From an uncultured Gammaproteobacteria bacterium (lineage in GTDB: Bacteria; Patescibacteriota; Microgenomatia; UBA10105; UBA927), in contig CAYGFH010000001.1 in assembly GCA_964349125.1 (NCBI GenBank), forward strand, positions 459,502 through 523,501: DNA of 64,000 nucleotides. Reading direction: 5' to 3'. Within the stretch, counting starts at the first letter, position 1. The number at the start of each line of letters is the position of its first letter. The notes under the pieces are model-generated. The model was not told where the DNA came from and searched no databases. It saw only the letters and a list, made by a program, of their open reading frames with translations. Shown piece by piece: positions 8,789 to 51,176 of this stretch. The position numbers and the translations under genes were made by a program.

Positions 8789-8802
8789 TAAATAGACCAC
8801 GT

Positions 8803-15980: not shown

Positions 15981-15988
15981 ATGTGCAA

Positions 15989-16861
15989 TTATAGCCCTTT
16001 CATCCATTCAATAATACATTTTGCGAGTATTTTTTCTTTCCCATCAAACCCGTGATTCGCATCAGAAATAATAACGCTTTTATAGCTCGAGGACTTTTGA
16101 TGACTATCAAACTGTTTTTTAATAGTCGCAATATCTCTATCGGCAAGTGTATCCTCCTCTCCGAAAATTACTAATAGTGGCTGGAGAATACGAGAAAATC
16201 GCTCGAGACACGGCTCAGAATCGCCATAGTCAAAAACATCCTCCTGTGATCTTTTAGAAATCAGACTTAAAAATCGGTTAACTGTACCGGGGAAATACGC
16301 ACTGGTGGTAATTAATCTTTCTCCCAATCCTAACAACTGTAATAAATGCAAATACAGTTTCTTATGAAACGCGATATTCGCTGTCAATCTGTCGGATAAT
16401 GGTGATAAAAGTACAACACCTTTTATGTTAGGATTTCTTGAAGATGTACTAACATATACCGCTTTATTCGCGCCCGTACTTGAACCTATCAAAAATATCT
16501 CTGTAAACCCTTTAGAAACCAGGAATGCAATTGATGCTTCAATGTCATAAATAGACTCTTCGAAATGCTCTACGCCTGATCCGACAGTTGTATATGAATA
16601 TCCTGATTTGCTTTTTTTATCCAGACGATGAGCACTCGCTAACATATCATGTCCACGATTATTAAAAGATGCAAAACCGATCCCGAAGGTATCGCAGAGA
16701 GTAACTATTTCATCAATTCTTTTAATACTGCTATAAAAATTGCTCGTTAATCCGTGAATCCATAAGAATGCTCTTTTACCTCGTTTTTTGGGACAAAAAT
16801 ACATCCCATGATGAATGATTCCGTCACTTGTTTGTATTTCCGAGATTAAGAATGGTTTCAT
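15989..16861 (-). CDS. alpha/beta-fold hydrolase (serine esterase-like)
   Basis: 290 aa, 'WIHGLTSNFY' oxyanion region, nucleophile elbow 'GSSTG', C-terminal His. Confidence 0.7.
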   Translation of the reverse strand: MKPFLISEIQTSDGIIHHGMYFCPKKRGKRAFLWIHGLTSNFYSSIKRIDEIVTLCDTFGIGFASFNNRGHDMLASAHRLDKKSKSGYSYTTVGSGVEHFEESIYDIEASIAFLVSKGFTEIFLIGSSTGANKAVYVSTSSRNPNIKGVVLLSPLSDRLTANIAFHKKLYLHLLQLLGLGERLITTSAYFPGTVNRFLSLISKRSQEDVFDYGDSEPCLERFSRILQPLLVIFGEEDTLADRDIATIKKQFDSHQKSSSYKSVIISDANHGFDGKEKILAKCIIEWMKGL

Positions 16862-20415: not shown

Positions 20416-21315
20416 TTATCTGCAGTAAAATACAATGTCAAGGGGTATGTTCCGCTTTTTTAATCGTTTTTCCAGAGCTTTTTTAATCCACACTCTTGCA
20501 TCACGAGGATGAAACCGTAACACGCTATTAGTCACAATTTCGTTCGTCCGTCGCTTCGACATATACCATAGTTGAGCATAACGAGCAGGCAACTCAAAAC
20601 ACCGAAGGATAGTTCGAGAGACATGTGTCCACCAGTGTGAAACTTTCGGATGTTGGTTACGACCGACTTTCTTTATATCCCACGCAACCGGAAGATATTG
20701 TTTTGTCCAACTGTTTGCCTGCAAGAACCTTCTATAGGTATCTTTTCGTGACCAAAGCGGCTCCATTTGGAGGACTTCATGTGCTGAAAACAAATCCTGT
20801 TCAGAGACAGGAATTTGCATACTATCGTCCCCAATAAACATATTTAGGCAAATAAGATTCGAGACGCGGCGGATCCCTGGAGTACGCCGTTTTGCAAATA
20901 GCGCCGCTATAATTGTTACCAACAATCTGGTAATCCAAACTGTGCCACTGGAAGTTATGAAAAAAAGATCAATATCATCAGTGACAGCTGCATTATTTAC
21001 GGCAAGACCCCCTGTCACACCAACCAAATATATAGTTGGGATAATGCGGAATTTAGCGGCGATCTCGCGGGCGATTTTCCATTTCTGTTTTGAATGATCC
21101 CGACGCTTAATATATGTTTGTACAATGTCATCACGACCTTTAAGGAAACGGAAATAATTACTTTTCTTTACACCTCTTATGACTCTGTTTCTGATATTTT
21201 TCCCCGGCACGTATCTGATACTCCGGAAATAAATATCATCATCAGTTAGTGGATAATCGAATATATCCGCATAACACACTGTCGCGTACAAATAGTCTGC
21301 TCGTGATAAACGCAT
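20416..21315 (-). CDS. hypothetical protein with Pol-beta-type nucleotidyltransferase motif
   Basis: 299 aa; 'VGVTGGLAVNNAAVTDDIDLFFIT' fits minimal NTase motif hG[GS]-x10-DhDh; no other recognisable domain. Confidence 0.4.
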   Translation of the reverse strand: MRLSRADYLYATVCYADIFDYPLTDDDIYFRSIRYVPGKNIRNRVIRGVKKSNYFRFLKGRDDIVQTYIKRRDHSKQKWKIAREIAAKFRIIPTIYLVGVTGGLAVNNAAVTDDIDLFFITSSGTVWITRLLVTIIAALFAKRRTPGIRRVSNLICLNMFIGDDSMQIPVSEQDLFSAHEVLQMEPLWSRKDTYRRFLQANSWTKQYLPVAWDIKKVGRNQHPKVSHWWTHVSRTILRCFELPARYAQLWYMSKRRTNEIVTNSVLRFHPRDARVWIKKALEKRLKKRNIPLDIVFYCR

Positions 21316-27246: not shown

Positions 27247-27318
27247 AATTATGCTGTGGGCGAGGATGGGATCGGACCATCGACATCTACTTTATAAGAG
27301 TAGCGCTCTGCCACTGAG
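27247..27318 (-). tRNA. tRNA with anticodon UAU (tRNA-Ile, AUA-decoding) by manual folding
   Basis: Reverse complement of 27247-27318 folds as a cloverleaf: acceptor GGGCGAG/CTCGCCC, D-arm GCTC-AGTGGCA-GAGC, anticodon stem CTACT/AGTAG, loop CTTATAA (U33, anticodon TAT, A37), T-arm GATGG-TCCGATC-CCATC, discriminator A; CCA not encoded. Confidence 0.75.
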
Positions 27319-27401
27319 CTACTCGCCCTATCGTTTGCGCGGATATTTAGAATATATGACCCATACACCCGAACGATGTTGTTATTATAACAAAAGAAGC
27401 G

Positions 27402-28796
27402 CTATGGACGAAGTAGCTGTTCCATATGACTTTCAATTTCATATGCACGTTTCTTATTCTTCCCGAAAATGATGTATGCGAGTTTATGATAAGAGAGCAG
27501 ATTCTCCGATATTATTATTAATCCCTCATTGGTATGTTTATCAAATAAGATTGGCCGTAACGTATCTAGCATTTCACTAAAAGAGTACTCGTGTGTTAGT
27601 GATAAATCATAATTATTAAATGACAGGATATATGTCAGATACATAAAATCTTTTCCGAATAATTTTTCTGCAACGGTATGCACATGAGTTCCACCCGTCC
27701 TTCTAACATTTGACTCGGTCACATATAATTGCCCATTTTTTGCGGCAACAAAATCGACATCAAAATATCCTCTGTATCCATTTGCCCGATATTGTTCAGC
27801 TATGTGAAATCCTGTATCTACCATTCTTGCTGTAAGTTGATCAGATATCACTTCATTGTTGATTTCCATGCCTCGAAAGACACCATCTTTTGCCATTCTC
27901 ATTCCGCCCGAAAACAAAAATTCAACATGTCCATTTTTTTGAATATGATATTCGACATTAGGAAATCCGCCGCCAACGGCATAGTTAATGGAGATCAACG
28001 ATTCAATAATTATCGGAAATAACCTCCAATAATCGTCTTTTTTAAGAATATTTAATATTTTCTTCTGACATGCCCCGAAATCGAGTGGCAATTCTCCTTC
28101 ACGAAGAATCAAAACACCCAATCCTGCATGGCCTTTATTTGTTTTTATAACCACGCCGTGTTCCTTTATGTATTTGTTTGCTGCAATTCTAGATGCGTCA
28201 ATAATACCGCTTACCACAATACCGTCCGGCATCATCAGGTCAGGCTCTGCTGCCCTATTTAACTGCGCAAGCTGTCGAATGCCTGATTTACTTCCGTAGA
28301 AATTCACTGTCCAGGCATCTTCCTCTTCCGGAGCATCAGGAGTGAACACAGTAAGTCCTTTTGAACGCAATACCCCTACTAGGTTGATAAACTGTTCCGA
28401 GGTTGAATAACTTTTAATTGTGAGCCGTTTCTGACCGTTCGCTGCTACTATCAGTGCCTCCATAATTGAATCGTCACGCAGGATGTCATCACAAATGATT
28501 CCACTATGGGAATTGGGAACAAGAAATCTGAAATTTTTCTTCCCGAAAAGTTGGTAATAATATTCCAAAAATTGCACATCAATTGCGTGAGGCAGAACAA
28601 AAATCATATTTTCCTCATCGCAAAAAGAAAACAGATCTCGGTCACCCAAATCAGCATTCTCTTCTATCTCCTGATGACGAGCCTCTTTGCTAGAAAACGC
28701 AGCGATAAACGACCAAACATCTTCCGACATATTGAAAATGTAGACGGTGTTATTTGATATTTTGAGCGGCCCGGAAGGGCTTGGGGATACATCCAT
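27402..28796 (-). CDS. ATP-grasp superfamily carboxylate-amine ligase, unknown substrate
   Basis: 464 aa; C-terminal half has ATP-grasp signatures 'HGVVIKTNKGHAGLGVLIL' and 'GYRGYFDVDFVAAKNGQLYVTESNVRRTGG'; ~200-aa N-terminal domain of unknown type. Confidence 0.7.
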   Translation of the reverse strand: MDVSPSPSGPLKISNNTVYIFNMSEDVWSFIAAFSSKEARHQEIEENADLGDRDLFSFCDEENMIFVLPHAIDVQFLEYYYQLFGKKNFRFLVPNSHSGIICDDILRDDSIMEALIVAANGQKRLTIKSYSTSEQFINLVGVLRSKGLTVFTPDAPEEEDAWTVNFYGSKSGIRQLAQLNRAAEPDLMMPDGIVVSGIIDASRIAANKYIKEHGVVIKTNKGHAGLGVLILREGELPLDFGACQKKILNILKKDDYWRLFPIIIESLISINYAVGGGFPNVEYHIQKNGHVEFLFSGGMRMAKDGVFRGMEINNEVISDQLTARMVDTGFHIAEQYRANGYRGYFDVDFVAAKNGQLYVTESNVRRTGGTHVHTVAEKLFGKDFMYLTYILSFNNYDLSLTHEYSFSEMLDTLRPILFDKHTNEGLIIISENLLSYHKLAYIIFGKNKKRAYEIESHMEQLLRP

Positions 28797-28864: not shown

Positions 28865-31225
28865 TTATAATCGTGCACGGTGCACTATTTCAGCCTCAAC
28901 CAGCTCTCTGGATCGTCCATATTTCAATCTGGATAATTGAATAATTGCCTCGGCAACTTTTTTATTTTTTTGCGCATTTACTTTTGTCATGTCTTTTGTC
29001 AAATCTATACTAAATGGTTTTACGGGTTCGTTGCGCACACTTGTTTTGACATACGCGTTAAATTTATCAATATTTATGAGATCAGCTTCATTGAATGTCG
29101 GTTGAAATTCATGTTGCAGATAATTGGCATCGGTGACTCCGACCCGGAATGATGCCACTGTTCCTACGTTGCCAAATACAGCATTTTTCACTTCTTCTTC
29201 CATCTGTCCGATAAATTGATTTGCAACGATAAGATTTAATCTGTATTTACGGGCTTCGGACAATATTTGGGCAAAATCCGGTGTAGCAAAATTCTGAAAT
29301 TCATCAACATATAGGAAGAAATCTCTTCGCTTGTCTTCAGGAATTTCCTGCCGGCTCATGGCAGAAATCAAAATTCTTGGTACCAAAATGAGCCCCAAGA
29401 AATTACTGTTTTCTTCACCGATTTTACCCTTCGCTAAATTGATCAGCAATATTTTCCCCTCATCCATGACATTTCTAAAGTTATAGCTGGATTGGGATTG
29501 TCCTATGATATTCCGCATCATTTTATTGGTGACAAACCGGCCGAACTTTGAAACGATGTAATCGAGGACCTCAGACTTATGAAAATCTGCGGTTTGTGCG
29601 ATTTGATCTGTCCAGTACCGTTTAATGATAGGATCCGTTAATTTGGGTAACAGTTCTTGTACAAAAGCTGCATCCGTTAGCACACGGACCACTTCGATGA
29701 ATGTATTTCCCGGTTCTACCATAACAGTCAACATCGCGTTTCGAACCGCATGTTCAAAGCGTGGACCTATAATACCTGTTTTTTGAGGGTCGTACAGTTT
29801 GTACATAAGCCCTACGATCGATGTGACTACGAAATGCTTTTGCTCTTCGGTGGAGGCTTCAAGCATGTTTAGCCCCATTGGCCGCTCAAGATCAGATGGG
29901 TCAAAATAAATAACATCTTCGGCGCGTTCCGGAGGAATACGGTTAAGAACCCCTTCTACCAAATCTCCGTGTGGATCAACAACCGCAACCCCTTTGCCGT
30001 CACGGATGTCCTGAATAATCATCTCTTCCAATAACTGCGATTTTCCAGTACCAGTTTTTCCAATCACATACATATGTCTTCGTCTATCATCATCTCCAAT
30101 ATAGATTGGACGTTCTACTCCGCGATACCTCGAGGTGCCCAAAAACATGCCGCTCATTGGGATTTGTGAGGGCGCCGGCGCCCGTTTTGCATTTAGCCAA
30201 AAAATGTGCGCGGTTTCGATAGACTTGTTCGGAAAATGGAAAATGGTTGCAAGTTCGTCGCTGTTTAGCACGCTATACTGACGAAATAATGGCACGTTCA
30301 TAATTGGGAAGTAGCGGTAGATAAAATCAACAATAAACAAATGCTTAAACGGCATTTTTACTTTTGTAAAATGATTGTAATCAGATGCGAACTGACTGAA
30401 ACTCGTCAATATGTTATCCAAATGCATATGCGAATCCTCTTTTGTATTTGCTGACACGACACATCGGATGACAACATTAAATCCGGGTTTCCCAGTTTTT
30501 TGTTCTATAGCCTCGAGTGATTTGGGATCCACCTTAAAACTTGCTTTCTCAGGGTTTGATTCATCTTTTTTCACATGCGATATATATGACCGTCCCTGAT
30601 CTCTCCATTTTCCATCAGCAGGTTGCACTAAAATCTGGATAGCAGCTCCTTCACCTGGTTTCATTTTTGCCATAACGGAGGTAATAGATGACAACGGATC
30701 AGTCGGCAAATCTCGATATATTCGAAGTGGATTATAATCACTTGAGCTTAAACAAAGAGCAGCAAACGACACCTTCCCCTGCTCACTAAATATTGAATAC
30801 TCTTCCACGAGCTTTATATCGGCCCCGGGGTATGCACCATGAATTTGTTTTTCCACCAAATCCATAAGTTTTTTGGGAACTGCAACATAGAACCGAATAT
30901 CTTCGGATCTCGCTACTATTTCAAATGATAAATGCTCTTTTGGTTTCAGAAATGACCACATATCCGAATGCGCAATACTATGCAAACTGGAAAAAAGCTG
31001 CTCAGCAACATCAATTTTCACTTCGTTATCACGCGGAACGGCCACCTGCAAAAGCACTGTTTCAAGAGAATGCTCCTCACGGTTGCGGTATTTCCATAGG
31101 AGAAACACTATGTATCCGATCAGTGCGAGGATACCGACAAAAAATAGTATTAGACCCAGACTAATTCCAAGCATTTGAAGCCTATACGTGAGATCCGCGA
31201 GTTTTTCCGTCATCTGTGTATCCAT
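28865..31225 (-). CDS. membrane-anchored VirB4/TraC/HerA-superfamily (DUF87-type) ATPase
   Basis: N-terminal TM helix 'ISLGLILFFVGILALIGYIVFLLW', ~350-aa non-ATPase domain, then Walker A 'YVIGKTGTGKSQLL', 'VDPHGDL' motif, Walker B 'FLYVDEFQNF' and 'ARKYRLNLIVANQ', as in VirB4/HerA/TraD-type translocation ATPases. Confidence 0.7.
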   Translation of the reverse strand: MDTQMTEKLADLTYRLQMLGISLGLILFFVGILALIGYIVFLLWKYRNREEHSLETVLLQVAVPRDNEVKIDVAEQLFSSLHSIAHSDMWSFLKPKEHLSFEIVARSEDIRFYVAVPKKLMDLVEKQIHGAYPGADIKLVEEYSIFSEQGKVSFAALCLSSSDYNPLRIYRDLPTDPLSSITSVMAKMKPGEGAAIQILVQPADGKWRDQGRSYISHVKKDESNPEKASFKVDPKSLEAIEQKTGKPGFNVVIRCVVSANTKEDSHMHLDNILTSFSQFASDYNHFTKVKMPFKHLFIVDFIYRYFPIMNVPLFRQYSVLNSDELATIFHFPNKSIETAHIFWLNAKRAPAPSQIPMSGMFLGTSRYRGVERPIYIGDDDRRRHMYVIGKTGTGKSQLLEEMIIQDIRDGKGVAVVDPHGDLVEGVLNRIPPERAEDVIYFDPSDLERPMGLNMLEASTEEQKHFVVTSIVGLMYKLYDPQKTGIIGPRFEHAVRNAMLTVMVEPGNTFIEVVRVLTDAAFVQELLPKLTDPIIKRYWTDQIAQTADFHKSEVLDYIVSKFGRFVTNKMMRNIIGQSQSSYNFRNVMDEGKILLINLAKGKIGEENSNFLGLILVPRILISAMSRQEIPEDKRRDFFLYVDEFQNFATPDFAQILSEARKYRLNLIVANQFIGQMEEEVKNAVFGNVGTVASFRVGVTDANYLQHEFQPTFNEADLINIDKFNAYVKTSVRNEPVKPFSIDLTKDMTKVNAQKNKKVAEAIIQLSRLKYGRSRELVEAEIVHRARL

Positions 31226-31226
31226 A

Positions 31227-31712
31227 TTATTCTTTCACACGGATAAATTTGCCATGTACATTTTTGAGTGTTATATGCAAAAATTTAAGTCTCCTCACAC
31301 ACCATTCAGCTAGCCAGCGCATGGAATTCGTTACTTCCTGATGTAAACCGACAGCAATCTGATCATCAGATAACGGTAATACAACTGTAGACGTTGTTTG
31401 CACTGGAATGTTAGCACCGGATGCTGATACCCCCAATTTCGCGATCGGAGGCGGTATTGGAATTGTCGTGGGTTGTATGCGAACGCCGGCTGACTGCACC
31501 TCCTTTGGTAATTCAAACTCTTGACCACTTGCATTAGACAACACTTCACGCTGGTCTGGCATCCCGCTTACTGGCGCCGTTTCTTTGCTCCCGTGAGAAA
31601 TCGCCCCACCGGAAGTAGGTTCATCAGATGATTTCCGCGTATTTCCCGCAACTACCGGCTGATTTGGAGATGATGAAATTGGAGGTGAAGCTATATTTGG
31701 CAGGTCATTCAT
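31227..31712 (-). CDS. Pro/Ser-rich low-complexity protein, unknown function
   Basis: 161 aa; 'PPISSSPNQP ... TIPIPPPIAK'; stop/start overlaps with both neighbours suggest operon membership. Confidence 0.45.
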   Translation of the reverse strand: MNDLPNIASPPISSSPNQPVVAGNTRKSSDEPTSGGAISHGSKETAPVSGMPDQREVLSNASGQEFELPKEVQSAGVRIQPTTIPIPPPIAKLGVSASGANIPVQTTSTVVLPLSDDQIAVGLHQEVTNSMRWLAEWCVRRLKFLHITLKNVHGKFIRVKE

Positions 31713-33811
31713 AGTTCTATCATAGCATGACTAAACGCATAAATAACACCACTAGGTACTGTGATATTTCCGGGTGTCCGTATTCCAATGGATACTGTGT
31801 TGGGATATATTTTTTTATCTTTTTTCTTTTTTGTCTTTTGCTTGTTTGTGCCTGTGGACTGCGCAAAACCCTGCTCGCGAATCATAGCCAAATGCCAGAT
31901 GATCGCAAAAAGCAACCAGGAAGAGGGTTCTTTTCGGATAATACCATCAGGTGAATCCTTTATGGATTCATACAGCGACATGGGAGATGTGGCTGTATCT
32001 GTACCGTGTTCACGTTGCCGTTGTAGTACTGATTGAATCTTTTCCAGGGATGAAAAATAGTTCATATATTTATATAGCAGCATCACGGTTACGGCAAAAG
32101 AAAATTGTCTGACATGCTGAGCTTCTGAGATAGACTCCGATGCGCGTCTTGTATCATTGATTTCTCTGTCTGTATACGCACGCGGCACTGCTGTTGGTTC
32201 AGAGTTCTGATTATGATGGATAAGATCAAGAAGTATCTCATGCAGCGATTCTATCCGTTCTTGCACATGCTTTTTTTCTGTGGTGACAATGTGCATCCGC
32301 TCTGATTGTGACGCCTGGTGCAATATTTGAAGCATATCAACTGTCAGTATCAGCGTTTCATAATCCACGGATGATGAATCATTGACACCGGATTTCTGTT
32401 GTTCCAACAGTTCATTCGTTACTTCTATTAATTCAGCTGATATTCCTTTTTCTTCTAATATATGTGTTGTTTTATCCTCCTTTATGATCACGACAGGAAC
32501 ACTACTATCTTCCGAATTTTCATTATGTGATTCCGCAGCAGTCGGTACCTGGTGTTCTATGGAGAATTCCTCCATATTTCCTGATAGCACATCCAAGGCA
32601 AAAAGCGCGCCTCCTATTGGCATGGATTCATCCGAGATACTTCGCACCAGAATTTGCTCTGCTGTTTTGGTTATTTCATACGCTTCTTGCACGTCTGTAT
32701 ATAGGAAATCTGATTGTTCTGTAGATAGCTGCAATGAATCCTTGGCGATTTGCTTCCATACTGATACCAATTCAGATTCAGAGAGATGCAGTGATTCATC
32801 CGGCTCTGTTGATAACAGGAGCAACGATTCTGTATGCTCTTGCTGCATAAGTAAAGCTTCAACAGTGGAAGGGATTACCCAATCTTCATTACTAAATTCA
32901 GGCGCGATGATGGATCTCGATTCATCATCATGTCTCTTGGAAATATACTCAAACACACCACTAATCGTTTCGACAGAACCCTCATAGATATGTTTTGCCG
33001 TGGAATCTGTCGTCTGGCTTGCCAGTTCGATGACGCCGAATACTGCCATAGCCAATCCCTGTCGCACATTTTCCTGTGCCAACATGGTTTCCAACGCTTT
33101 AGCAGCGTACTGTTCCACTTGCCTATTTCGTTCCTCAAGAAGTAATGGATATGCTGATGTTGACCGGGATAATCTATCTAAATACTCGTTTTGTGATGAA
33201 TCACCCGATAAACTATTTTTTGCTTCCTCGAAAATCTGATTGACACCAACTTCCTTTGTGAAAAAAAGGGCCTGATTTTGGTCAGCACTCTTAGATATAT
33301 CTGCCCCACCTTGCAATCCAAGTCCGGTAAAGAATCTCTGTAACTGAGCATCTGTACCTTTGAATTCAACCGCTAACGCCTTAATCGTATTATTTTCTCC
33401 TCTTGAATATAAGTAGACAAAACTTCTTCCATATCCTAAATCAGGACTTATTGTTGCAGCCATTTTTACATCTGGATTGCTCATGAGCCCGGACTCTGCA
33501 TGGAGCGTTCTTCCAATTCTGTCGCCGCCAATATCATTGGGATCATTGAGTTCTTCAACTGTTTTTCCACCACCATCAACCCATCGTCCTGCTTCGTTTA
33601 TATTATAATCAAATGGAATTAACGGTTGATGCAAAATAAATTCGTGCTGCCAACCGACTGCATCCTTCGCAAGCGCTTTGGACGCTGCATCCATCGATGC
33701 TCCCTGCTGGAGAATACCACTTAAGTAATCTTGTGACTTATCATCATTCCATTCGTGACTCATAATGACCAAAAAAAACTTCTCAGGTACTCGAGAAGTG
33801 TATATAAACAT
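31709..33811 (-). CDS. large hypothetical protein (700 aa), no recognisable domain; Lys-rich C-terminal tail
   Basis: Long ORF with coding-like composition, co-directional and overlapping (ATGA) with the downstream gene; acidic/Ser-rich middle, 'KQKTKKKKDKK' near the C-terminus. Confidence 0.6.
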   Translation of the reverse strand: MFIYTSRVPEKFFLVIMSHEWNDDKSQDYLSGILQQGASMDAASKALAKDAVGWQHEFILHQPLIPFDYNINEAGRWVDGGGKTVEELNDPNDIGGDRIGRTLHAESGLMSNPDVKMAATISPDLGYGRSFVYLYSRGENNTIKALAVEFKGTDAQLQRFFTGLGLQGGADISKSADQNQALFFTKEVGVNQIFEEAKNSLSGDSSQNEYLDRLSRSTSAYPLLLEERNRQVEQYAAKALETMLAQENVRQGLAMAVFGVIELASQTTDSTAKHIYEGSVETISGVFEYISKRHDDESRSIIAPEFSNEDWVIPSTVEALLMQQEHTESLLLLSTEPDESLHLSESELVSVWKQIAKDSLQLSTEQSDFLYTDVQEAYEITKTAEQILVRSISDESMPIGGALFALDVLSGNMEEFSIEHQVPTAAESHNENSEDSSVPVVIIKEDKTTHILEEKGISAELIEVTNELLEQQKSGVNDSSSVDYETLILTVDMLQILHQASQSERMHIVTTEKKHVQERIESLHEILLDLIHHNQNSEPTAVPRAYTDREINDTRRASESISEAQHVRQFSFAVTVMLLYKYMNYFSSLEKIQSVLQRQREHGTDTATSPMSLYESIKDSPDGIIRKEPSSWLLFAIIWHLAMIREQGFAQSTGTNKQKTKKKKDKKIYPNTVSIGIRTPGNITVPSGVIYAFSHAMIEL

Positions 33812-33918: not shown

Positions 33919-34506
33919 TTATTTTTTAGATTGCTTCGAAATCCCCGACCATAACAGTTCGAACACTGAAGCGTCCTTATTTATATAGCGTGCGAGCACA
34001 AAAAGCAAATCGGATAATCTGTTTACATACTGGATTACTGTGTTCCATTCCAGCGCTGTCAAATGATCCCAAGGCGCATCAGCTTTGCTATGTGTCTCAC
34101 GCAATTTCACTATCTGGCGTTCTACTCTTCTTGCGATTGCACGGGCAAGGTGGACAAATGAAGCTGGCTCTGTGCCCCCTGGTAATATAAAATGAGTCAG
34201 CTGGGGAAGTGTTTTTTCCATTGCATCAATGCGCACTTCCATATCTTCCGAGCATACTGTCAGGTTCTGTGCTCCCCCTTTTTTCCATCCCGCAAACATG
34301 CTACCGATCACAAATAAATCCGCCTGTATGTCCTGTAAAAAACACTTGGTATCTTCATCTGTTATCTGCGTGGCGGCAAGCCCAATCCAACTGTTCAATT
34401 CATCTATGGATCCGTACACATCAACCAGTTCTTCACATTTCAACACACGCGTGCCGCCAAAGAGTGCTGTTGTTCCATCATCACCGGTCCGAGTATATAT
34501 TGGCAT
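33919..34506 (-). CDS. PduO-type ATP:cob(I)alamin adenosyltransferase (MMAB family)
   Basis: 'MPIYTRTGDDGTTALFGGTRVLKCEELVDVYGSIDELNSWIG' is the PduO/MMAB N-terminal signature; start set at this Met. Confidence 0.85.
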   Translation of the reverse strand: MPIYTRTGDDGTTALFGGTRVLKCEELVDVYGSIDELNSWIGLAATQITDEDTKCFLQDIQADLFVIGSMFAGWKKGGAQNLTVCSEDMEVRIDAMEKTLPQLTHFILPGGTEPASFVHLARAIARRVERQIVKLRETHSKADAPWDHLTALEWNTVIQYVNRLSDLLFVLARYINKDASVFELLWSGISKQSKK

Positions 34507-34584
34507 ATGTTTAATTCTCAAATCACAAATCCCAAATTCCAATCAAATTGATTGGTCATTGAGATTTGAATTTTATGACGTATA

Positions 34585-36981
34585 TTAGCACTCTGAGTAT
34601 CCGCAGCTATAACATTTTTTGCACCCCTCTTCGAATACCAAACTTGCTTCACCACATCCGGGGCAAAGATCAACGGTTACCATGCGTTGCTTCTTTATAA
34701 TCGGCATCTGTGGAACGTCAACAGTCGCCACCGCTGCGTGAGTAGTCACCTGAGAGACTTTACTGTCCGCATGGACGGTTTCGTCTGCTGCAACCGCGTT
34801 TTCCAAGCGGTGTTTCGCAAAGAATCCGAAATGTCTGTCTATCACTTTTGCGACCGCATCAGGCAAGCTCCGCACGCGATTTTCACCAAATCCCATTGAT
34901 CTGGCGCCTCCAATACCGACTAATTCCGCCGCGACTTTTCGTGCCCGATCCAAAGCGGAAACCGGAGATGAAAGTCGGAAGATAAGCGATGTCAATCTGC
35001 CAACTGCTTCAGCCATTGCAGTTACATCACTTCCCGCTTTACCGACGTTTACAAACATTTCCAGGGGTTGGTTTCCACCGTTTGTATTGATGGTCACATA
35101 GGCCTGACCAAGCGGAGTTTCCACCTGATATGTGGATCCATGAACCACCATAGGACGTGGCTTTACTTCAGGCATAACCTGTTCAACTGGCTTTTTCACT
35201 TCTTCTGCTTTTGGTTCTTCCTTGCGGGTCAATACTCCTGCTCTGCTTCCCTCTCGCATATAGGCGATTCCCTTGCATCCCTGCTCGTATGCAAGCGTGT
35301 ATAAGCGCTTTACATCCTCAACAGTATGAGTTGCGGGAGCATTTACAGTCTTACTGATGGATGCATCCACATACTTTTGAATAGTAGCCTGTACATAGAC
35401 ATGATCCTCAGGAGTCAGGTCATTTGCCGATACAAAATACTCTGGTCGTTCTTCTTTTGTCGGTTCTCTACCATTTGTTTTTTTAAATTCATCAAACCAG
35501 GCATCATACAACGGATGCCGCAGGATATGTTCACCGAGCCTGTCACGTCGTATGAACTCAAATTCATATACGGGTTCTATGCCGCTGGATACACCGGACA
35601 ACAATGATGTGGATCCAGTCGGCGCCTGTTGCAGCAACATGCTGTTTCGGATACCGTGTTTCTTCAATTTCTTTTTGACTGAATCCGGCAATTGGCTTAC
35701 GAAATATCCATCCAAATGCTTTTTGATATCAATCTTCGGAAACGCCCCTTTTTCTTCCGCTATATCGACTGATGCATCATATGCTGCATCGCGTATGGTT
35801 TTATAGATCCGGTCAATTACTGGCAGACTCTCGGGAGATCCGTATCGTATTTTCATTTTGATTAGCGCATCCCCGAGGCCCATGGTTCCCAATCCAATTC
35901 GGCGTTCGCCCTGTTGCTGTACTTTTCTGATTTCCTCAAATACATAGAAATCCGCGTCGATGACATTGTCTTGGAATCTCACGCCGATTCTGGCAATTTC
36001 TGCGAGACGCTCAAAATCCATCTCTCCGTTTTCGTTCACAAGCGCGGCTAAATTAATAGAGCACAAATTGCACACTCCCCAGCTTGGTAACCCCTCTTCT
36101 CCACAAGGATTTACACAGTTTACATATTCATAATAGTAATTGTTAAACCACTTGTTGTACCGTTCCATAAATACCACTCCCGGTTCTGCACTTCTCCATG
36201 CTGCGGTAGCAACCAGATCCCACAGAACACGTGCTTTTATGGTTTTATATACAATGGGTTTTTTCCCAAGAGCCAACCAATTTGGCATATATCCGTCCCA
36301 CTTTTCGTCATAATCAGGATCATCCTTATCAGGAAATACCAAATCCCAATCTGCATCATTTTTTACGGCTTCCATAAATGTGTCAGACACGCAGACAGAG
36401 AGATTTGCTCCGTTTATTCTTGCAAGATCCTGTTTAACGGTAATGAATTCTTCGATATCCGGATGCCAGTCCCAGAGCATCAACATGAGCGCCCCTCGCC
36501 TGCTTCCTCCCTGTTGGATAATATCTTTTGTCGCGACACTGAAGAGTTCGGCCCAGTTACACGGACCCGAAGAAAATCCGTTCACTTTTGTTACTCTCGC
36601 ACCTCGAGGTCTGAGACTTGAAAGGTTTATCCCCACTCCGCCTCCGCGGGACATGATCTCTATCATTTGGGTGAGAGTTTTTAAAATTCCCTGGCGTGAA
36701 TCATGAGGGCTCGGAAGCACAAAACAATTGTAGAATGTCACCTTGTATCCGGTTCCGGCACCCGACAATATACGCCCGCCGGGAACCAATACGAAATCCT
36801 GCATGGCACCGTAGAATTTATCTTCCCAGTGCGCACGTTTATTCTTTGGCTCAATGAGAGAAACAGCGTGAGCAATCCGTCGCCACATTTCTTCAGGAGT
36901 TTTTTCCACAGCGGTTCCCTGTTCATCCTTCAATGCGTATCTATCTAAAAAAACTGTGTTACGGATTCCTGTAAGTTGCAT
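34585..36981 (-). CDS. nrdJ: class II (adenosylcobalamin-dependent) ribonucleoside-triphosphate/diphosphate reductase
   Basis: 798 aa monomeric RNR with class II signatures, catalytic Cys residues, C-terminal Zn-ribbon 'CPGCGEASLVFEEGCKKCYSCGY'; adjacent to nrdR and a B12 adenosyltransferase. Confidence 0.9.
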   Translation of the reverse strand: MQLTGIRNTVFLDRYALKDEQGTAVEKTPEEMWRRIAHAVSLIEPKNKRAHWEDKFYGAMQDFVLVPGGRILSGAGTGYKVTFYNCFVLPSPHDSRQGILKTLTQMIEIMSRGGGVGINLSSLRPRGARVTKVNGFSSGPCNWAELFSVATKDIIQQGGSRRGALMLMLWDWHPDIEEFITVKQDLARINGANLSVCVSDTFMEAVKNDADWDLVFPDKDDPDYDEKWDGYMPNWLALGKKPIVYKTIKARVLWDLVATAAWRSAEPGVVFMERYNKWFNNYYYEYVNCVNPCGEEGLPSWGVCNLCSINLAALVNENGEMDFERLAEIARIGVRFQDNVIDADFYVFEEIRKVQQQGERRIGLGTMGLGDALIKMKIRYGSPESLPVIDRIYKTIRDAAYDASVDIAEEKGAFPKIDIKKHLDGYFVSQLPDSVKKKLKKHGIRNSMLLQQAPTGSTSLLSGVSSGIEPVYEFEFIRRDRLGEHILRHPLYDAWFDEFKKTNGREPTKEERPEYFVSANDLTPEDHVYVQATIQKYVDASISKTVNAPATHTVEDVKRLYTLAYEQGCKGIAYMREGSRAGVLTRKEEPKAEEVKKPVEQVMPEVKPRPMVVHGSTYQVETPLGQAYVTINTNGGNQPLEMFVNVGKAGSDVTAMAEAVGRLTSLIFRLSSPVSALDRARKVAAELVGIGGARSMGFGENRVRSLPDAVAKVIDRHFGFFAKHRLENAVAADETVHADSKVSQVTTHAAVATVDVPQMPIIKKQRMVTVDLCPGCGEASLVFEEGCKKCYSCGYSEC

Positions 36982-37114
36982 ACTGTTCCTTTTTTTAAAT
37001 GGTTTATATATACCTGATAATTTCAGCCGATCATATCGTATAGCCGGAAACTGACCTACTCAGGTTATTTCACAATACGGGTTGGGTAGTCTAATTTTTC
37101 CGTATTGCTCACTC

Positions 37115-37561
37115 TTACAAAAGCTTTTTTACTTCCCGTTCAAAATCTTCAATATCAACGAATTGTCTAAATACGCTGGCAAACCGTATATATGCAATCT
37201 TATCTATTTTTTTAAGTCGCTTTCCTACGAGTTCGCCAATTTTTTTACTCATTACCTCTGTACTCTCGCCTCCTATTAATTCTCTTTCAACCTCATCCAC
37301 AATTCTGTCTATATCTTTTGCGGTTACCGTAGTCTTTCCGCTTGCCCTCCAAATCCCACGTCGTAATTTCTCCCTGTCAAATGTTTCTCTTCTGTCATCT
37401 TTTTTCACTACTGTAATTGGAACATTTTCAACTCGCTCATATGTAGTAAACCGTTTCTCACATTTTGTGCAATTTCTTCTGCGCCGCGTGACAGATAAAT
37501 CTTCGTTATCTCTCGTCTCAAGCACATCAGTATTTTCAAAATTACAATATGGACATTTCAT
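37115..37561 (-). CDS. nrdR: transcriptional repressor NrdR
   Basis: 'MKCPYCNFENTDVLETR ... CTKCEKRFTTYE' Zn-ribbon followed by ATP-cone domain; start set at the MKCPYC Met. Confidence 0.92.
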   Translation of the reverse strand: MKCPYCNFENTDVLETRDNEDLSVTRRRRNCTKCEKRFTTYERVENVPITVVKKDDRRETFDREKLRRGIWRASGKTTVTAKDIDRIVDEVERELIGGESTEVMSKKIGELVGKRLKKIDKIAYIRFASVFRQFVDIEDFEREVKKLL

Positions 37562-37822
37562 GAAATCTTTGGTCGCCAGCATTTCATGTGTGAAATACTA
37601 AACGCTACCTATGGTGCCAAAACAAATACTAAGACACTAAATAGAGAGCGTCAACTAGAAACTTCTATATCAAATGTGAACAGGCAGAAATTCTAGCCTC
37701 AATAGATAAAGCTTGAGGAAAATCTACGGTAATATAGTAGCATCCTCAGGAGCAGTGTGTAGTGTTAGTACTCGAATTTTGAGAATTGATAGCCAGTTTT
37801 CTGACAAACACCTAAGTGCTAT

Positions 37823-44883: not shown

Positions 44884-45915
44884 TTAGCGGCGTATTCGTA
44901 TGTGTAGATCAAATGGTGTTTCTTTTTTCGCTGGGTGTTTCAGTACGAGGAAATATCTCCCAGCAACAGGCACTCTCATTTCCAAATTTGATTCGTGGCG
45001 TAACACTGTAGGTCCATAACTGTATAGTTCAACAGTGGCTTCAATGCCATCAAGACTAACAGGTTTTCGTACAGTAAATGTGACAACATCCCCTTTAAAT
45101 GCAACAAAAGTATACGCAGCAAATGATTCCGAATACGCTTGAGTTGTTTTAAATACGCCGCCACGGATTACAGAGTGCGAATATATATCAATATCCTGGA
45201 ATTCTATCCCGTGGTACGGCACTTGCGGTGATGGGACGCCGGTATATGCGTCCATAGACCCAATAAATGTGGGCGCTCCGGTATAAAATTCCAGAGAACC
45301 CACAATTTCATCGGATAGAGTTTTATACTCGGGTGAGATGACAGTCACGCCCACTTCATAGAATAATTGGGGCGTTTCTATATAATAGTATTTCGTCGTA
45401 TAGTCGGAGTATGCGACTGTGTGAATAACAACGGGGTGAATACCTAATGTCCCGTATGAACAACCATATACACGTTTGAGAAAGCCAATAATATTTGTCA
45501 CTGGTTTTCCGGAGTGATCCGGCATAGATGCATGTCTCGAGTAGCTGGTGATACCAATTGCAGCGCCATTCTTTCCATATCCATGGAATTGTATGTTTGG
45601 ATTGTTCACACAGTACTCTTCTCTGCAGGAATCATTTCGAACCCAATCGCCCGGTATCGTCATACGAAAACCTAATTCATCGCTTGAGATCACTTTGGGG
45701 TTTTGGATTGACGATGTTCCGATAGATAATCGCTTGGGAACTATAAATAAGGGCTCCCTGCACTGCTCCAGTTGTATACGTGAAAATCCCGACAATCCAA
45801 ATTTATTGTGAAGCTTTGCCCAATACAGAAATGTGGCCACACAACAAACGATAAGGATGGAAGATAAAAGCAGAAACGTTCTCGAAATTGTTCTCTTGGT
45901 GTTGTGTGCGCGCAT
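44884..45915 (-). CDS. membrane-anchored extracytoplasmic hypothetical protein
   Basis: 343 aa; signal-anchor 'FLLLSSILIVCCVATFLYW'; Tyr/Thr-rich beta-rich C-terminal region; no known motif. Confidence 0.5.
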   Translation of the reverse strand: MRAHNTKRTISRTFLLLSSILIVCCVATFLYWAKLHNKFGLSGFSRIQLEQCREPLFIVPKRLSIGTSSIQNPKVISSDELGFRMTIPGDWVRNDSCREEYCVNNPNIQFHGYGKNGAAIGITSYSRHASMPDHSGKPVTNIIGFLKRVYGCSYGTLGIHPVVIHTVAYSDYTTKYYYIETPQLFYEVGVTVISPEYKTLSDEIVGSLEFYTGAPTFIGSMDAYTGVPSPQVPYHGIEFQDIDIYSHSVIRGGVFKTTQAYSESFAAYTFVAFKGDVVTFTVRKPVSLDGIEATVELYSYGPTVLRHESNLEMRVPVAGRYFLVLKHPAKKETPFDLHIRIRR

Positions 45916-45925
45916 ACCCTCCCAG

Positions 45926-47410
45926 TTACTGGGGTTTATTTATGACTACGGGTTTAATGCGGCTTAACGCTTCGAGGGAGTACCGTACACCCTGAACTCC
46001 TATTCCTGACTGTTTAACTCCGAGAAATGGGAAATGATCTGGACCCCGTTGTGGTGATCCGTTAATCTGTACAGTGCCGACATTGAGAAGGTCTGCATAC
46101 TTTAAGCCTGTTCCCTCATCTTTAGTAAATACACACGCCTGTAGTCCGAATCTCTGGCCGTTCACCACCCGTGCAGCTTCGTCCATATCTGCGACCGGAA
46201 TAAACGATATGACGGGACCAAACACTTCCGTAGAAACGATTTTCATTGACGGCTTTACGTTCGTCAGAATTGTCGGTTCTATGTATGCATCTTTTCTGTG
46301 GCCACCGGTTGCGACTGTTGCACCCTCTGCAATTGCATCCTGTATGTGTTTTTCAATTTCTTCAGCTACTTTGAGTGTTACAACAGGTCCTACGAGTTTT
46401 GTTGTTTCCTCACGAGGATCTCCCATGTGCACTAATTCTTTCATCTGTTCCAGTACAATAGGAAGGAGCTGATCCAACACATTTTGTGCACCCATCACAT
46501 ATTTGATAGCTGTACATCGCTGACCTGCAAATGATAATCCGCCTTTTATAATTTCCTTTGCAGTCAGGTTCATATCCGCATCAGGAAATACGATAGTAGC
46601 GTTGTTACCGCCGCATTCAAACAACAGAGGCTTCATTGGAGCTTTACTGGCAATTGCCATACCGACATCGGAGCTTCCGGTGAAGGCAACCATGGTAGTG
46701 TTCTTATGACTCACAAGATAATCACCAATATCATGACCTCCACCTGTCAGACAGGTTATGACACCCTCCGGCACACCGGCTTTTTCAAAAATACTTGTCA
46801 AATGCAGACCACTGATACTTCCCTGTGTCGGTGGTTTAAATACCACACTGTTACCCATCAGGAGCGCAGGAGCGATTTTACTGCCAGCAAGATTGACTGG
46901 GTAATTAAACGGAGCAATGGCAAGAACGACACCGTGTGCAACACGATTTATCACTGCGATGCTGTCTTTTTTGTATCCGGGGAATTTATCACTCTCCAAT
47001 GTTTCACCGCGAATCGACTGCACCTCATCAGCAAAATAATCAGTCAGTTCTGCTGTCCTTTTTATTTCACTCTTTGCTTCACCCATGCTTTTCCCTACTT
47101 CCCGGGCGAGCAGCGCCGCAAGGTAATCCAGATAATGCATGGTCCAGTCAGCTGCCAGATGAACAATTTTCACCCGCTCATTTAACGGAGTTGCCTCCCA
47201 CTTTTTTTGTGCATCTACATTTCGCTGCAAGGCCTCATCTATTTCCTCTGTGGTGACAACTTGAATTTCGCCTACGACGGAGCCGTCTATCGGGGATACT
47301 ATTGAAGTTCTTTTTCCGCTTTTACTCTCCACCCATTCTTTTCCGTTGAAATAACGGTACACCGGAGGGGTAGCATTATTACTAATGGCTTCAAATAAAT
47401 CGGCAGGCAT
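45926..47410 (-). CDS. gapN: non-phosphorylating NADP-dependent glyceraldehyde-3-phosphate dehydrogenase (GapN-type ALDH)
   Basis: ALDH fold with 'FECGGNN', catalytic 'AGQRCTAIKYV', and GapN-typical C-terminus 'RGPDHFPFLGVKQSGIGVQG'. Confidence 0.8.
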   Translation of the reverse strand: MPADLFEAISNNATPPVYRYFNGKEWVESKSGKRTSIVSPIDGSVVGEIQVVTTEEIDEALQRNVDAQKKWEATPLNERVKIVHLAADWTMHYLDYLAALLAREVGKSMGEAKSEIKRTAELTDYFADEVQSIRGETLESDKFPGYKKDSIAVINRVAHGVVLAIAPFNYPVNLAGSKIAPALLMGNSVVFKPPTQGSISGLHLTSIFEKAGVPEGVITCLTGGGHDIGDYLVSHKNTTMVAFTGSSDVGMAIASKAPMKPLLFECGGNNATIVFPDADMNLTAKEIIKGGLSFAGQRCTAIKYVMGAQNVLDQLLPIVLEQMKELVHMGDPREETTKLVGPVVTLKVAEEIEKHIQDAIAEGATVATGGHRKDAYIEPTILTNVKPSMKIVSTEVFGPVISFIPVADMDEAARVVNGQRFGLQACVFTKDEGTGLKYADLLNVGTVQINGSPQRGPDHFPFLGVKQSGIGVQGVRYSLEALSRIKPVVINKPQ

Positions 47411-51130: not shown

Positions 51131-51176
51131 AATGAGCCTTGTTACTAGCCTATAGATTATGGTATAAACACATTCT

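Follow-up and report, generated by a model that had tools for sequence, protein, structure and literature searches.

A strongly conserved, coupling-protein-like DUF8128 ATPase and its two partner genes in Microgenomates of the candidate phyla radiation

The window analysed here is a stretch of 64,000 nucleotides from contig CAYGFH010000001.1 (assembly GCA_964349125.1) of a bacterium of the candidate phyla radiation (CPR; Patescibacteria), and the subject is a three-gene locus on its minus strand encoding an ATPase of 786 aa, a small protein of 161 aa and a large protein of 684 to 700 aa. We found that the ATPase belongs to an already catalogued, near-universal CPR family of secretion-coupling-like motor proteins. 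Judged by sequence, its closest characterised relatives are the type IV coupling proteins (T4CPs) TrwB, VirD4, TraD and DotL, and it is a distant member of the T4CP family with an extra domain, DUF8128, and not a VirB4, HerA, FtsK or Ced protein. Its gene is a chromosomal core gene, vertically inherited and very slowly evolving. The small protein is the constant upstream partner of the ATPase across Microgenomates, and the large protein is a hypervariable mosaic partner restricted to Gottesmanbacteria-type loci. Confidence in the family assignment and in the conservation is much greater than in the mechanism proposed below.

Family assignment of the ATPase

Walker A GKTGTGKS, VDPHGDL, Walker B LYVDEFQNF and RKYRLNLIVANQ were all found in the 786-aa translation. 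A first-pass annotation, made from the letters alone, had placed the protein in a VirB4/HerA superfamily; it is indeed a membrane-anchored RecA-like ATPase of the FtsK/HerA/VirB4/VirD4 superfamily, and its nearest matches are VirD4, TrwB and TraD, not VirB4 or CedB. Above the Pfam gathering cut-offs it matched TrwB_AAD_bind (31.6 bits, cut-off 20.5), DUF87 (32.1, cut-off 23.2) and TraG-D_C (23.6, cut-off 22), the TrwB_AAD_bind and TraG-D_C matches being short ones in the P-loop region and at residues 638-700. The only significant matches among the sequences of solved structures, with a single-sequence or profile query, were TrwB (3.9e-6) and DotL. Most close homologues carry a precomputed PF02534 domain, annotations among the homologues read 'TraG/TraD family ATPase VirD4' or 'type IV secretion system DNA-binding domain-containing protein', and the best NCBIfam matches were TraD and VirD4-like models. 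The parts of the protein are as follows.

28865-31225, minus strand: whole gene of the 786-aa DUF8128 and T4CP-like ATPase (open reading frame, ORF)
31094-31162, minus strand: single N-terminal transmembrane (TM) helix, about residues 22-44, predicted N-out/C-in
30131-31063, minus strand: DUF8128 (PF26449), cytoplasmic alpha/beta domain, about residues 55-365 (from close homologues)
29006-30118, minus strand: RecA-like motor domain with GKTGTGKS, VDPHGD, VDEFQNF, RKYRLNLIVANQ and a putative helical insertion at about residues 450-590
28868-29005, minus strand: C-terminal helical tail with LSR..YGR....VE.EI (from alignments)

The single N-terminal TM helix that had been proposed was recovered (Kyte-Doolittle maximum 3.02, residues 25-43), and topology prediction for all three proteins gave one TM helix in total, in the ATPase. 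The N-out/C-in orientation is deduced from KYRNRE after the helix and from the need for a cytoplasmic ATPase. The C-terminal tail is predicted to be helical in a low-confidence model, and its motif is kept even among family members that are only 30-40% identical.

The N-terminal domain, which had been described as about 350 aa of unknown nature, is catalogued as Pfam PF26449/DUF8128. It is precomputed on the N-terminal ~300 residues of all 120 listed homologues at 77-96% identity, and the UniRef name of a Wolfebacteria homologue is 'DUF8128 domain-containing protein'. Because the local Pfam scan at E<=1 did not report PF26449 for the window ATPase itself, the assignment was made by close homology; the region carries strongly conserved motifs in the family alignment. 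A DUF8128 profile found no match among the sequences of solved structures, and a literature search for DUF8128 returned no paper.

With the T4CPs (TrwB of R388, VirD4, TraD/TraG, DotL/IcmO) the protein shares an N-terminal membrane anchor, a RecA-like nucleotide-binding domain (NBD) and the motifs 'GxTGxGKS ... VDPxGD' and 'DE ... RK...L...Q'; a helical insertion in the NBD is a putative further common feature. It differs from them by the additional ~300-aa DUF8128 between anchor and NBD, and by one TM helix where T4CPs have two or more. It is also chromosomal, near-universal and conserved at the level of ribonucleotide reductase (RNR), whereas T4CPs are mobile and fast-evolving, and no relaxase or type IV secretion system (T4SS) genes adjoin it.

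Other families of the superfamily were tried and rejected. For VirB4, the Pfam families CagE_TrbE_VirB and AAA_10 were missing from the match list at E<=1. Comparison of the family profile with VirB4-like proteins by hhalign gave E 0.02 (a plasmid protein) and 5e-5 (phage G gp155), in both cases near the P-loop only, and DUF8128 alone did not align as a VirB4 N-terminal domain (E 0.28-0.64). HerA_C matched at E 0.073 and the NCBIfam HerA model reached 17.4 bits against a cut-off of 970, on the P-loop only; no NurA-like neighbour of the ATPase occurred in the loci examined. For the Ced import system, the CedD model of NCBIfam gave 20.1 bits against 600, and both partner proteins are without a TM helix.

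That the protein is an ordinary FtsK/SpoIIIE division translocase is the least probable of the explanations considered and is refuted by family membership, and the first-pass annotation was right to set it apart from these. It does share with them the ASCE superfamily, a membrane anchor and a weak match to PF01580 on the P-loop (E 0.018). This match stays below the Pfam cut-off (15 bits against 24) and covers 26 residues (379-404); there is no 4-TM N-terminus, no gamma-domain family was in the match list, no FtsK structure was among the solved-structure sequence matches, and DUF8128 is not an FtsK feature.

Conservation and distribution of the ATPase

A word-indexed search with the ATPase found 7,961 homologues, of which the best 120, at 77-96% identity, are proteins of Gottesmanbacteria and other Patescibacteria. 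Two exact peptide motifs of the protein are carried by at least 587 species-representative genome matches; the best 80 of these are 66-96% identical over the full length and belong to Gottesman-, Levy-, Curtiss-, Woese-, Beckwith- and Chisholmbacteria. An exhaustive profile search collected 24,953 clusters (50% identity) at E<=1e-3 and 6,821 at E<=1e-30, including clusters with Wolfebacteria (Parcubacteria) members and an Anaerolineae member.

Across Microgenomates the ATPase is conserved as strongly as RNR. At the same loci the mean identity to the window was 75.8% for the ATPase, 75.4% for NrdR, 73.5% for RNR, 65.6% for TsaD, 62.3% for the NUDIX protein, 59.3% for the ATP-grasp protein and 54.0% for the adenosyltransferase.

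Some family members are much longer. P0327, P0340 and members of their clusters have about 1,440-1,510 aa, with TPR/ANAPC3 matches in an N-terminal region of about 1,000 aa and the ATPase at the C-terminus; one member of this type comes from an Anaerolineae (Chloroflexota) metagenome-assembled genome. Others reach 1,700-2,000 aa through C-terminal extensions. We also observed that many GTDB species-representative records have a clearly Gottesmanbacteria-like locus, in which the ATPase is 75-96% identical and synteny is kept, under the title 'uncultured Gammaproteobacteria bacterium' or 'Pseudomonadales' (for example L004-L007, L015, L016 and L020-L025). These are third-party assemblies and the titles are probably mislabelled.

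The existence of orphan T4CP-like genes in CPR genomes is already known. Quinonero-Coronel et al. (2025; PMC12102498) counted VirB4 in 2,417 of 3,035 Patescibacteria genomes (80%) and VirD4-type T4CP homologues in 2,918 of them (96%), the latter in 5,713 copies with only 148 near virB4; VirB4-type T4SS genes lie near dnaA in Microgenomatia, and exaptation of t4cp is left open. The window ATPase is almost certainly one of these orphans; its family too is encoded away from virB4 and is near-universal. In the part of the article used here the orphans are counted and exaptation is suggested, with no mention of DUF8128, the degree of conservation, a small partner or its fusion, or a hypervariable partner. 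The present analysis adds the DUF8128 architecture with its plasmid and phage relatives, the housekeeping-level conservation, the small partner and the fusion, and the hypervariable mosaic partner.

Organisation of the three-gene locus

The three tightly packed minus-strand genes, with the motifs and junctions first described for them, were confirmed in the ORFs: the 700-aa and 161-aa genes overlap by 4 nt, and a 1-nt spacer separates the 161-aa gene from that of the ATPase, with which it is translationally coupled in the window. The partner genes and the gene that follows the ATPase are placed as follows.

31227-31712, minus strand: small partner, 161 aa (ORF)
31709-33811, minus strand: large partner, 700 aa as called (ORF)
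31709-33763, minus strand: large partner with its likely start at M17, 684 aa (homologue alignment)
33032-33763, minus strand: N-terminal domain of the large partner, type N1, with MSHEW..., LIPFDY and SPDLGYGR.YVYLYSRGE (alignment)
31712-31939, minus strand: conserved C-terminal module of the large partner, with the hydrophobic helix WLLFAIIWHLAMIREQG, a Lys/Arg-rich stretch and the terminal GVI[YF]A (alignment and hidden Markov model, HMM)
27402-28796, minus strand: 464-aa ATP-grasp-like gene, as context (Pfam PreAtp-grasp, 3.7e-5)

The start of the large gene is most likely M17, because MSHEW at this position is invariant in all homologues of the alignment. All three genes are real ones, with more than 7,900 homologues of the ATPase, 119 of the small protein, and eight of the large protein together with syntenic divergent copies. 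The GC content of the locus (0.41-0.43) is typical of the window, and promoter-like or terminator-like sites showed no enrichment over shuffled sequence. The ATP-grasp-like gene lies 68 nt downstream of the ATPase on the same strand, and the spacer contains no terminator-like or significant fold (z = -0.61). This gene is kept downstream of the ATPase in Gottesmanbacteria-type loci only.

Conservation of the whole three-gene arrangement, which had been named as something to check in related genomes, was seen in Gottesmanbacteria-type loci; across Microgenomates only the small protein stays as a partner.

The small partner

The 161-aa protein is rich in Pro and Ser (16 P, 18 S), as had been noted, and has no TM helix. 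Its N-terminal half is of low complexity (disordered), and its C-terminal part is conserved as LPL.D.QI..GLH.....S.RWLAEWC.R. No match was found in Pfam, NCBIfam or PDB.

In 80 of 84 loci the immediate upstream neighbour of the ATPase is a homologue of the small protein. Of the other four, two have a truncated upstream sequence, one has an ORF fused in frame, and one has a 154-aa ORF without a match. In the fusion (L021:123-2936) the small gene and the ATPase form one ORF of 937 aa, which may be genuine or may stem from an error in assembly or sequencing at the stop codon.

A second locus set comprised 80 metagenomic loci centred on a Wolfebacteria member of the ATPase family (Parcubacteria-like). 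The Microgenomates small-protein profile found nothing upstream of the ATPase in these 80 loci. In 25 of them the small ORF upstream is of another kind, marked by NP.L.D.FHD.L.D, and this ORF is homologous to the N-terminal extension of ATPases of about 920 aa (hhalign 98.4%, E 6.6e-15). Such fused forms, in which the TM helix is missing, occur in about 30 other Parcubacteria-like loci (L106, L108, L110, L112, L114, L115, L120-L146 and others, for example L134:5566-8334), usually between adk/pyrH/map and ndk. The Parcubacteria-like small partner is thus genuinely fused to a member of the ATPase family.

The large partner

As first described, the large protein has no recognisable domain: neither it nor its variants matched Pfam, PDB, PADLOC or PHROG. 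A word-indexed search found eight homologues only. With HMMs iterated on the fetched loci, the protein was recovered in 34 loci, all of the Gottesmanbacteria type with an ATPase identity of 70-96%, and its size there varies from about 560 to 810 aa.

The large protein is only 25-41% identical where the ATPase is 77-86% identical. Against the closest locus, L004, the nonsynonymous distance (dN) was 0.85 for the large protein, 0.34 for the small protein, 0.057 for RNR and 0.034 for the ATPase, which means that the large protein diverges about 25-fold faster than the ATPase. Only relative dN is given, and no dN/dS, because synonymous sites are saturated (proportion of synonymous differences, pS, about 0.8) even against this locus. 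There the ATPase is 96% identical and the large protein aligns at residues 304-684 only, with 31% identity.

The conserved part is the C-terminal module, WLL.AIIW.L.MIREQG followed by a Lys/Arg-rich stretch and then GVIF, whose HMM matches 32 loci. The Lys-rich tail that had been pointed out is present as KQKTKKKKDKK; it is not the extreme end of the protein, because about 25 more residues ending in the conserved GVI[YF]A come after it. The N-terminal regions fall into at least two types that are not linked by BLAST, N0 in 20 loci and N1 in six, together with singletons, and hhalign found no significant homology between N0 and N1 (E 0.11). These types are shuffled relative to ATPase relatedness and to the C-terminal types, and N0 is also joined to a different C-terminus in cluster c38 (hhalign 90.7%, E 1.2e-6).

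Elsewhere the upstream slot is taken by other proteins. In Levybacteria-type and some other loci (L038, L044, L050, L062, L066, L072, L075, L079) it is a protein of about 350-450 aa with a C-terminal CxxC...CxxC zinc ribbon (c16), whose comparison with the N1 domain of the window protein is borderline and unproven (hhalign E 0.025). Further occupants are proteins of unknown function (c41 and singletons) and plain housekeeping genes, for example pyruvate kinase, an MIP channel or the B12-related DUF4430/DUF6580 pair. Comparison of the slot clusters c7, c16, c38 and c41 by hhalign gave nothing at the whole-protein level, and after domain splitting the one significant pair was N0 and c38.

The signals that T4CPs recognise, XVIPCD for example, lie at the C-terminus and often carry positive charge. 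The Xanthomonas XVIPCD effectors combine variable N-terminal regions with a conserved C-terminal module for VirD4, and the large protein, whose gene lies close to a VirD4-like one, follows the same logic. Unlike these effectors it has no toxin or immunity domain that we could find, sequence similarity to them is not expected, and the likeness is one of architecture, with secretion remaining putative.

Relatives outside the CPR

By tblastn, full-length homologues spanning both DUF8128 and the ATPase were found outside the CPR at 20-30% identity. The ATPase matched 48 phage records, including Bacillus phages G, SPO1 and SP-10, and 322 plasmid records of Streptomyces, Bacillus, Staphylococcus, Clostridium, Sulfolobus and haloarchaea, 266 of which are typed as non-mobilizable. 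With a Bacillus subtilis plasmid protein, BLASTP aligned residues 99-739 of the window ATPase, DUF8128 included, at 27% identity (E 2e-48). The DUF87/DUF8128 ATPases of Gram-positive plasmids, Bacillus phages and haloarchaeal or Sulfolobus plasmids thus have the same two-domain architecture as the window protein.

On two B. subtilis plasmids and on Clostridium botulinum pCBH the homologue lies directly upstream of a 'replication-relaxation family protein', and on the B. subtilis plasmids (NRS6107_2, FUA2231) conjugal-transfer, TcpE and VirB4-like genes come next. Because the plasmid copies adjoin replication-relaxation and conjugation genes, the DUF8128 and ATPase architecture holds, outside the CPR, the coupling-protein position of Gram-positive transfer systems. 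These plasmids carry the DUF8128 family and a separate VirB4 side by side; and VirB3, of the VirB4/TrwK/TraC systems, has a TM helix, whereas the small partner in the window has none. In phage G (L170) the homologue gp156 adjoins the VirB-like gp155, making a two-ATPase, secretion-like pair in a phage genome; another full-length phage homologue is SPO1 gp27.4 (L165). The plasmid and phage ATPases sit on mobile elements, whereas the CPR copy has no replication-relaxation, TcpE or VirB4-like neighbours. The possibility that the CPR partners are divergent replication-relaxation proteins was considered and dropped, as no resemblance was found.

On the haloarchaeal megaplasmid pNVE500 of Natrinema versiforme (L167, 6884-11123) the match spans a 395-aa 'hypothetical protein' and a 1,030-aa 'TraM recognition domain-containing protein', and this gene pair adjoins a second, 1,102-aa T4SS-DNA-transfer family protein.

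We regard it as highly improbable that the locus is the remnant of an integrated mobile element, or that the ATPase is an anti-phage defence protein of the HerA-like or MADS mad8-like kind. In favour are the homologues on plasmids and in Bacillus phages, a PADLOC match to mad8 (E 1e-17, ATPase core only) and a PHROG match to phrog_5156 (E 4.6e-96), whose annotation reads 'unknown function'. Against it, PADLOC found no match on three neighbouring proteins, and there is no other mad or defence gene, integrase or relaxase near the ATPase. The housekeeping synteny on the chromosome is kept across classes, composition is uniform, and mobile or defence genes are far less conserved than this one. A search of IMG/VR viral contigs with the family's own motifs found no close relative.

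Genomic neighbourhood

Upstream of the locus are NrdR, a class II RNR and a PduO-type adenosyltransferase, and downstream are the ATP-grasp, NUDIX and TsaD genes; this housekeeping neighbourhood is syntenic across related loci. The upstream genes form a B12-related block (33919-37582, minus strand), in which the class II RNR has a TSCPD domain. In six loci (L009:2227-3264, L012, L034, L049, L051, L064) the DUF4430/DUF6580 pair lies between the B12 block and the ATPase module; a role of this pair in cobalamin uptake is a guess.

Our census took in two locus sets, about 160 CPR loci, in which 67 neighbour families were matched; it considers the 25 most frequent of them. The gene after the ATPase in non-Gottesman Microgenomates encodes a Xer-type tyrosine recombinase and lies on the opposite strand (cluster c5, L017:7709-8620 and 31 other loci; further cluster c8); DivIC/FtsB comes next. 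In Parcubacteria-like loci the neighbours are adk, pyrH, map, ndk, dnaX, GtrA, PMT_2 and MreB. The recurrent neighbours are thus lineage-specific housekeeping genes, and no single functional partner recurs. A nucleotide-metabolism neighbourhood was discarded, as the census gave heterogeneous housekeeping genes. The idea of an FtsK analogue, drawn from the Xer and DivIC neighbours, is kept only as part of the housekeeping explanation given below: these neighbours are not conserved in all lineages, and FtsK is present in Saccharibacteria.

Within the window, VirB4, VirB6, VirB8, relaxase, integrase and FtsK were not found among the scanned ORFs. The earlier statement that VirB6, VirB8, relaxase and integrase are missing nearby therefore stands; that VirD4 is missing too was wrong, because the ATPase gene is itself the VirD4-like one. 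In the rest of the window are housekeeping genes, with the genes for type IV pili clustered about 25 kb from the locus.

The first-pass annotation had proposed a minimal, self-contained translocation device, perhaps a reduced Ced-like or VirB4-like system for uptake or export, working possibly with these pili. We consider this very unlikely, if marginally less so than a mobile or defence origin. The tight coupling of the three genes and the pilus cluster in the same window are in its favour. As the three proteins hold a single TM helix in total, no channel is encoded at the locus, and there is no polytopic CedA-like partner. The CedD score is far below cut-off, VirB4 Pfam families did not match at E<=1, and VirB4-like hhalign matches lie near the P-loop only. 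The large partner is absent outside Gottesmanbacteria-type loci, and no pilus or ComEC family was among the recurrent neighbours in the about 160 loci, where no link with type IV pili was found.

Some further features of the window were recorded. Its sole tRNA is tRNA-Ile with the anticodon TAT (UAU) at 27256-27328 on the minus strand (ARAGORN and Rfam, 68.4 bits); in bacteria it is uncommon to find a UAU isoleucine tRNA in place of the lysidine-modified CAU one. Two tandem class A penicillin-binding proteins of 746 and 849 aa lie at 48890-53726 on the plus strand, and two aldehyde dehydrogenase paralogues occur in this small CPR genome at 14601-16007 and 45926-47410 on the minus strand. Three ORFs had no Pfam match at E<=0.001: 501 aa at 8647-10152 (plus), 343 aa at 44884-45915 (minus) and 299 aa at 20416-21315 (minus).

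Proposed function

Our leading reading, which we put forward tentatively, is that the locus may encode a domesticated, coupling-protein-like, membrane-tethered hexameric translocase together with a small adaptor and, in this lineage, a polymorphic client, and that it probably works with components from outside the locus. The ATPase would form a membrane-tethered hexameric ring like T4CPs, VirB4 and HerA, and, driven by ATP, would recruit a macromolecular substrate at the cytoplasmic membrane or thread it. The small protein would be a stoichiometric adaptor or regulator bound to the N-terminal region of the ATPase. The large protein would be the polymorphic client, that is a substrate or a substrate-recruiting adaptor, possibly recognised through its conserved C-terminal module in parallel to signal recognition by T4CPs. 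With no channel gene at the locus, the motor would need to dock onto a system from another part of the genome; the most plausible one is the patescibacterial VirB4-type T4SS, whose own gene clusters have no coupling protein. In favour of this reading are the T4CP-like sequence matches, the setting of the plasmid and phage homologues, the core-gene status of the ATPase, the constant small partner, the modular large partner, and the published orphan T4CP homologues and Southlakia T4SS cluster.

Several results weigh against this proposal. No T4SS, relaxase, pilus or ComEC/competence family was among the 25 most frequent neighbour families of the about 160 CPR loci, so that any T4SS link is one of homology alone. 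Conservation at the level of RNR is unusual for a secretion component. The NCBIfam cut-offs were missed widely (SXT_TraD 52.9 bits against 366; CD1115-family VirD4-like 34.8 against 250). The Microgenomates small protein has no detectable homology with the fused Parcubacteria one (hhalign E 0.35), and because these two small families are not detectably related, the fusion supports the role of the window protein by analogy only. The client or effector role of the large protein is argued from architecture and evolutionary rate only, no enzymatic domain being recognised; its structure model was unusable (predicted local distance difference test score, pLDDT, 46.6) and was for this reason left out of the fold search.

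The AlphaFold model of the ATPase was also of low confidence (mean pLDDT 58.6), and since it came from a shallow alignment the fold searches are only indicative. With this model Foldseek ranked full-length TrwK/VirB4 first (E 1.2e-12, about 778 aligned columns, TM-score 0.23), with Cag-beta and HerA behind. From this model, the overall layout of the ATPase may be VirB4-like.

Published data (PMC12102498) count against the proposal as well: T4CP homologues occur in 96% of genomes and VirB4 in only 80%, and in Southlakia the t4cp homologue, which may not be of the DUF8128 type, is reported as non-essential while the T4SS genes are essential.

The main rival explanation, which we hold to be rather unlikely, is a housekeeping translocase independent of any T4SS, the DUF8128 ATPase having been exapted for a core membrane task. 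This could be DNA handling in division, in an FtsK-like way together with Xer, or the import of DNA from which nucleotides are salvaged. On this view the small protein would act as a regulator, and the large one would be an accessory specific to its lineage. Conservation equal to that of RNR and NrdR and above that of TsaD agrees with such a role, as do the wider occurrence of T4CP homologues than of VirB4 and the exaptation raised by the authors of PMC12102498. The Xer-type recombinase and DivIC/FtsB after the ATPase in non-Gottesman Microgenomates, the nucleotide and DNA genes (RNR/NrdR, adk, pyrH, ndk, dnaX) flanking it in different lineages, and the forms without any membrane anchor point the same way. 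On the other side, the neighbours vary by lineage and resemble ordinary synteny with no recurring functional partner. The ATPase has no FtsK gamma domain or 4-TM anchor, with FtsK_SpoIIIE at 15 bits on the P-loop, and Saccharibacteria carry FtsK according to published papers. The reported dispensability of the Southlakia homologue speaks against a core task, and every characterised relative acts in conjugation-type transfer.

Implications for the biology of the CPR

The CPR (Patescibacteria) make up a large share of bacterial diversity, and their exploitation of hosts is poorly understood. Southlakia, the only genetically tractable member, cannot grow as an epibiont without its T4SS, and the T4SS gene cluster has no recognisable coupling protein or relaxase (Wang et al. 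2023; PMC10633639). The present results show that one scattered VirD4-like gene is among the most conserved genes of these genomes, and they yield testable hypotheses on adaptor, client and T4SS docking, with defined proteins for interaction and structure work.

It is unlikely, though worth stating, that the DUF8128 ATPase will prove to be either the missing substrate receptor of the patescibacterial T4SS or a T4SS-independent, near-universal housekeeping translocase of the CPR. As a housekeeping translocase it would serve a function for which no other bacterial phylum uses this protein family. If it is the T4SS receptor, the upstream gene of Gottesmanbacteria would stand for a polymorphic family of effectors, the first of its kind, that CPR episymbionts deliver to the host and in which a conserved C-terminal recognition module bears variable N-terminal 'warheads'. 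Were the large protein to be a secreted client, effectors of uncultured CPR could be discovered starting from it.

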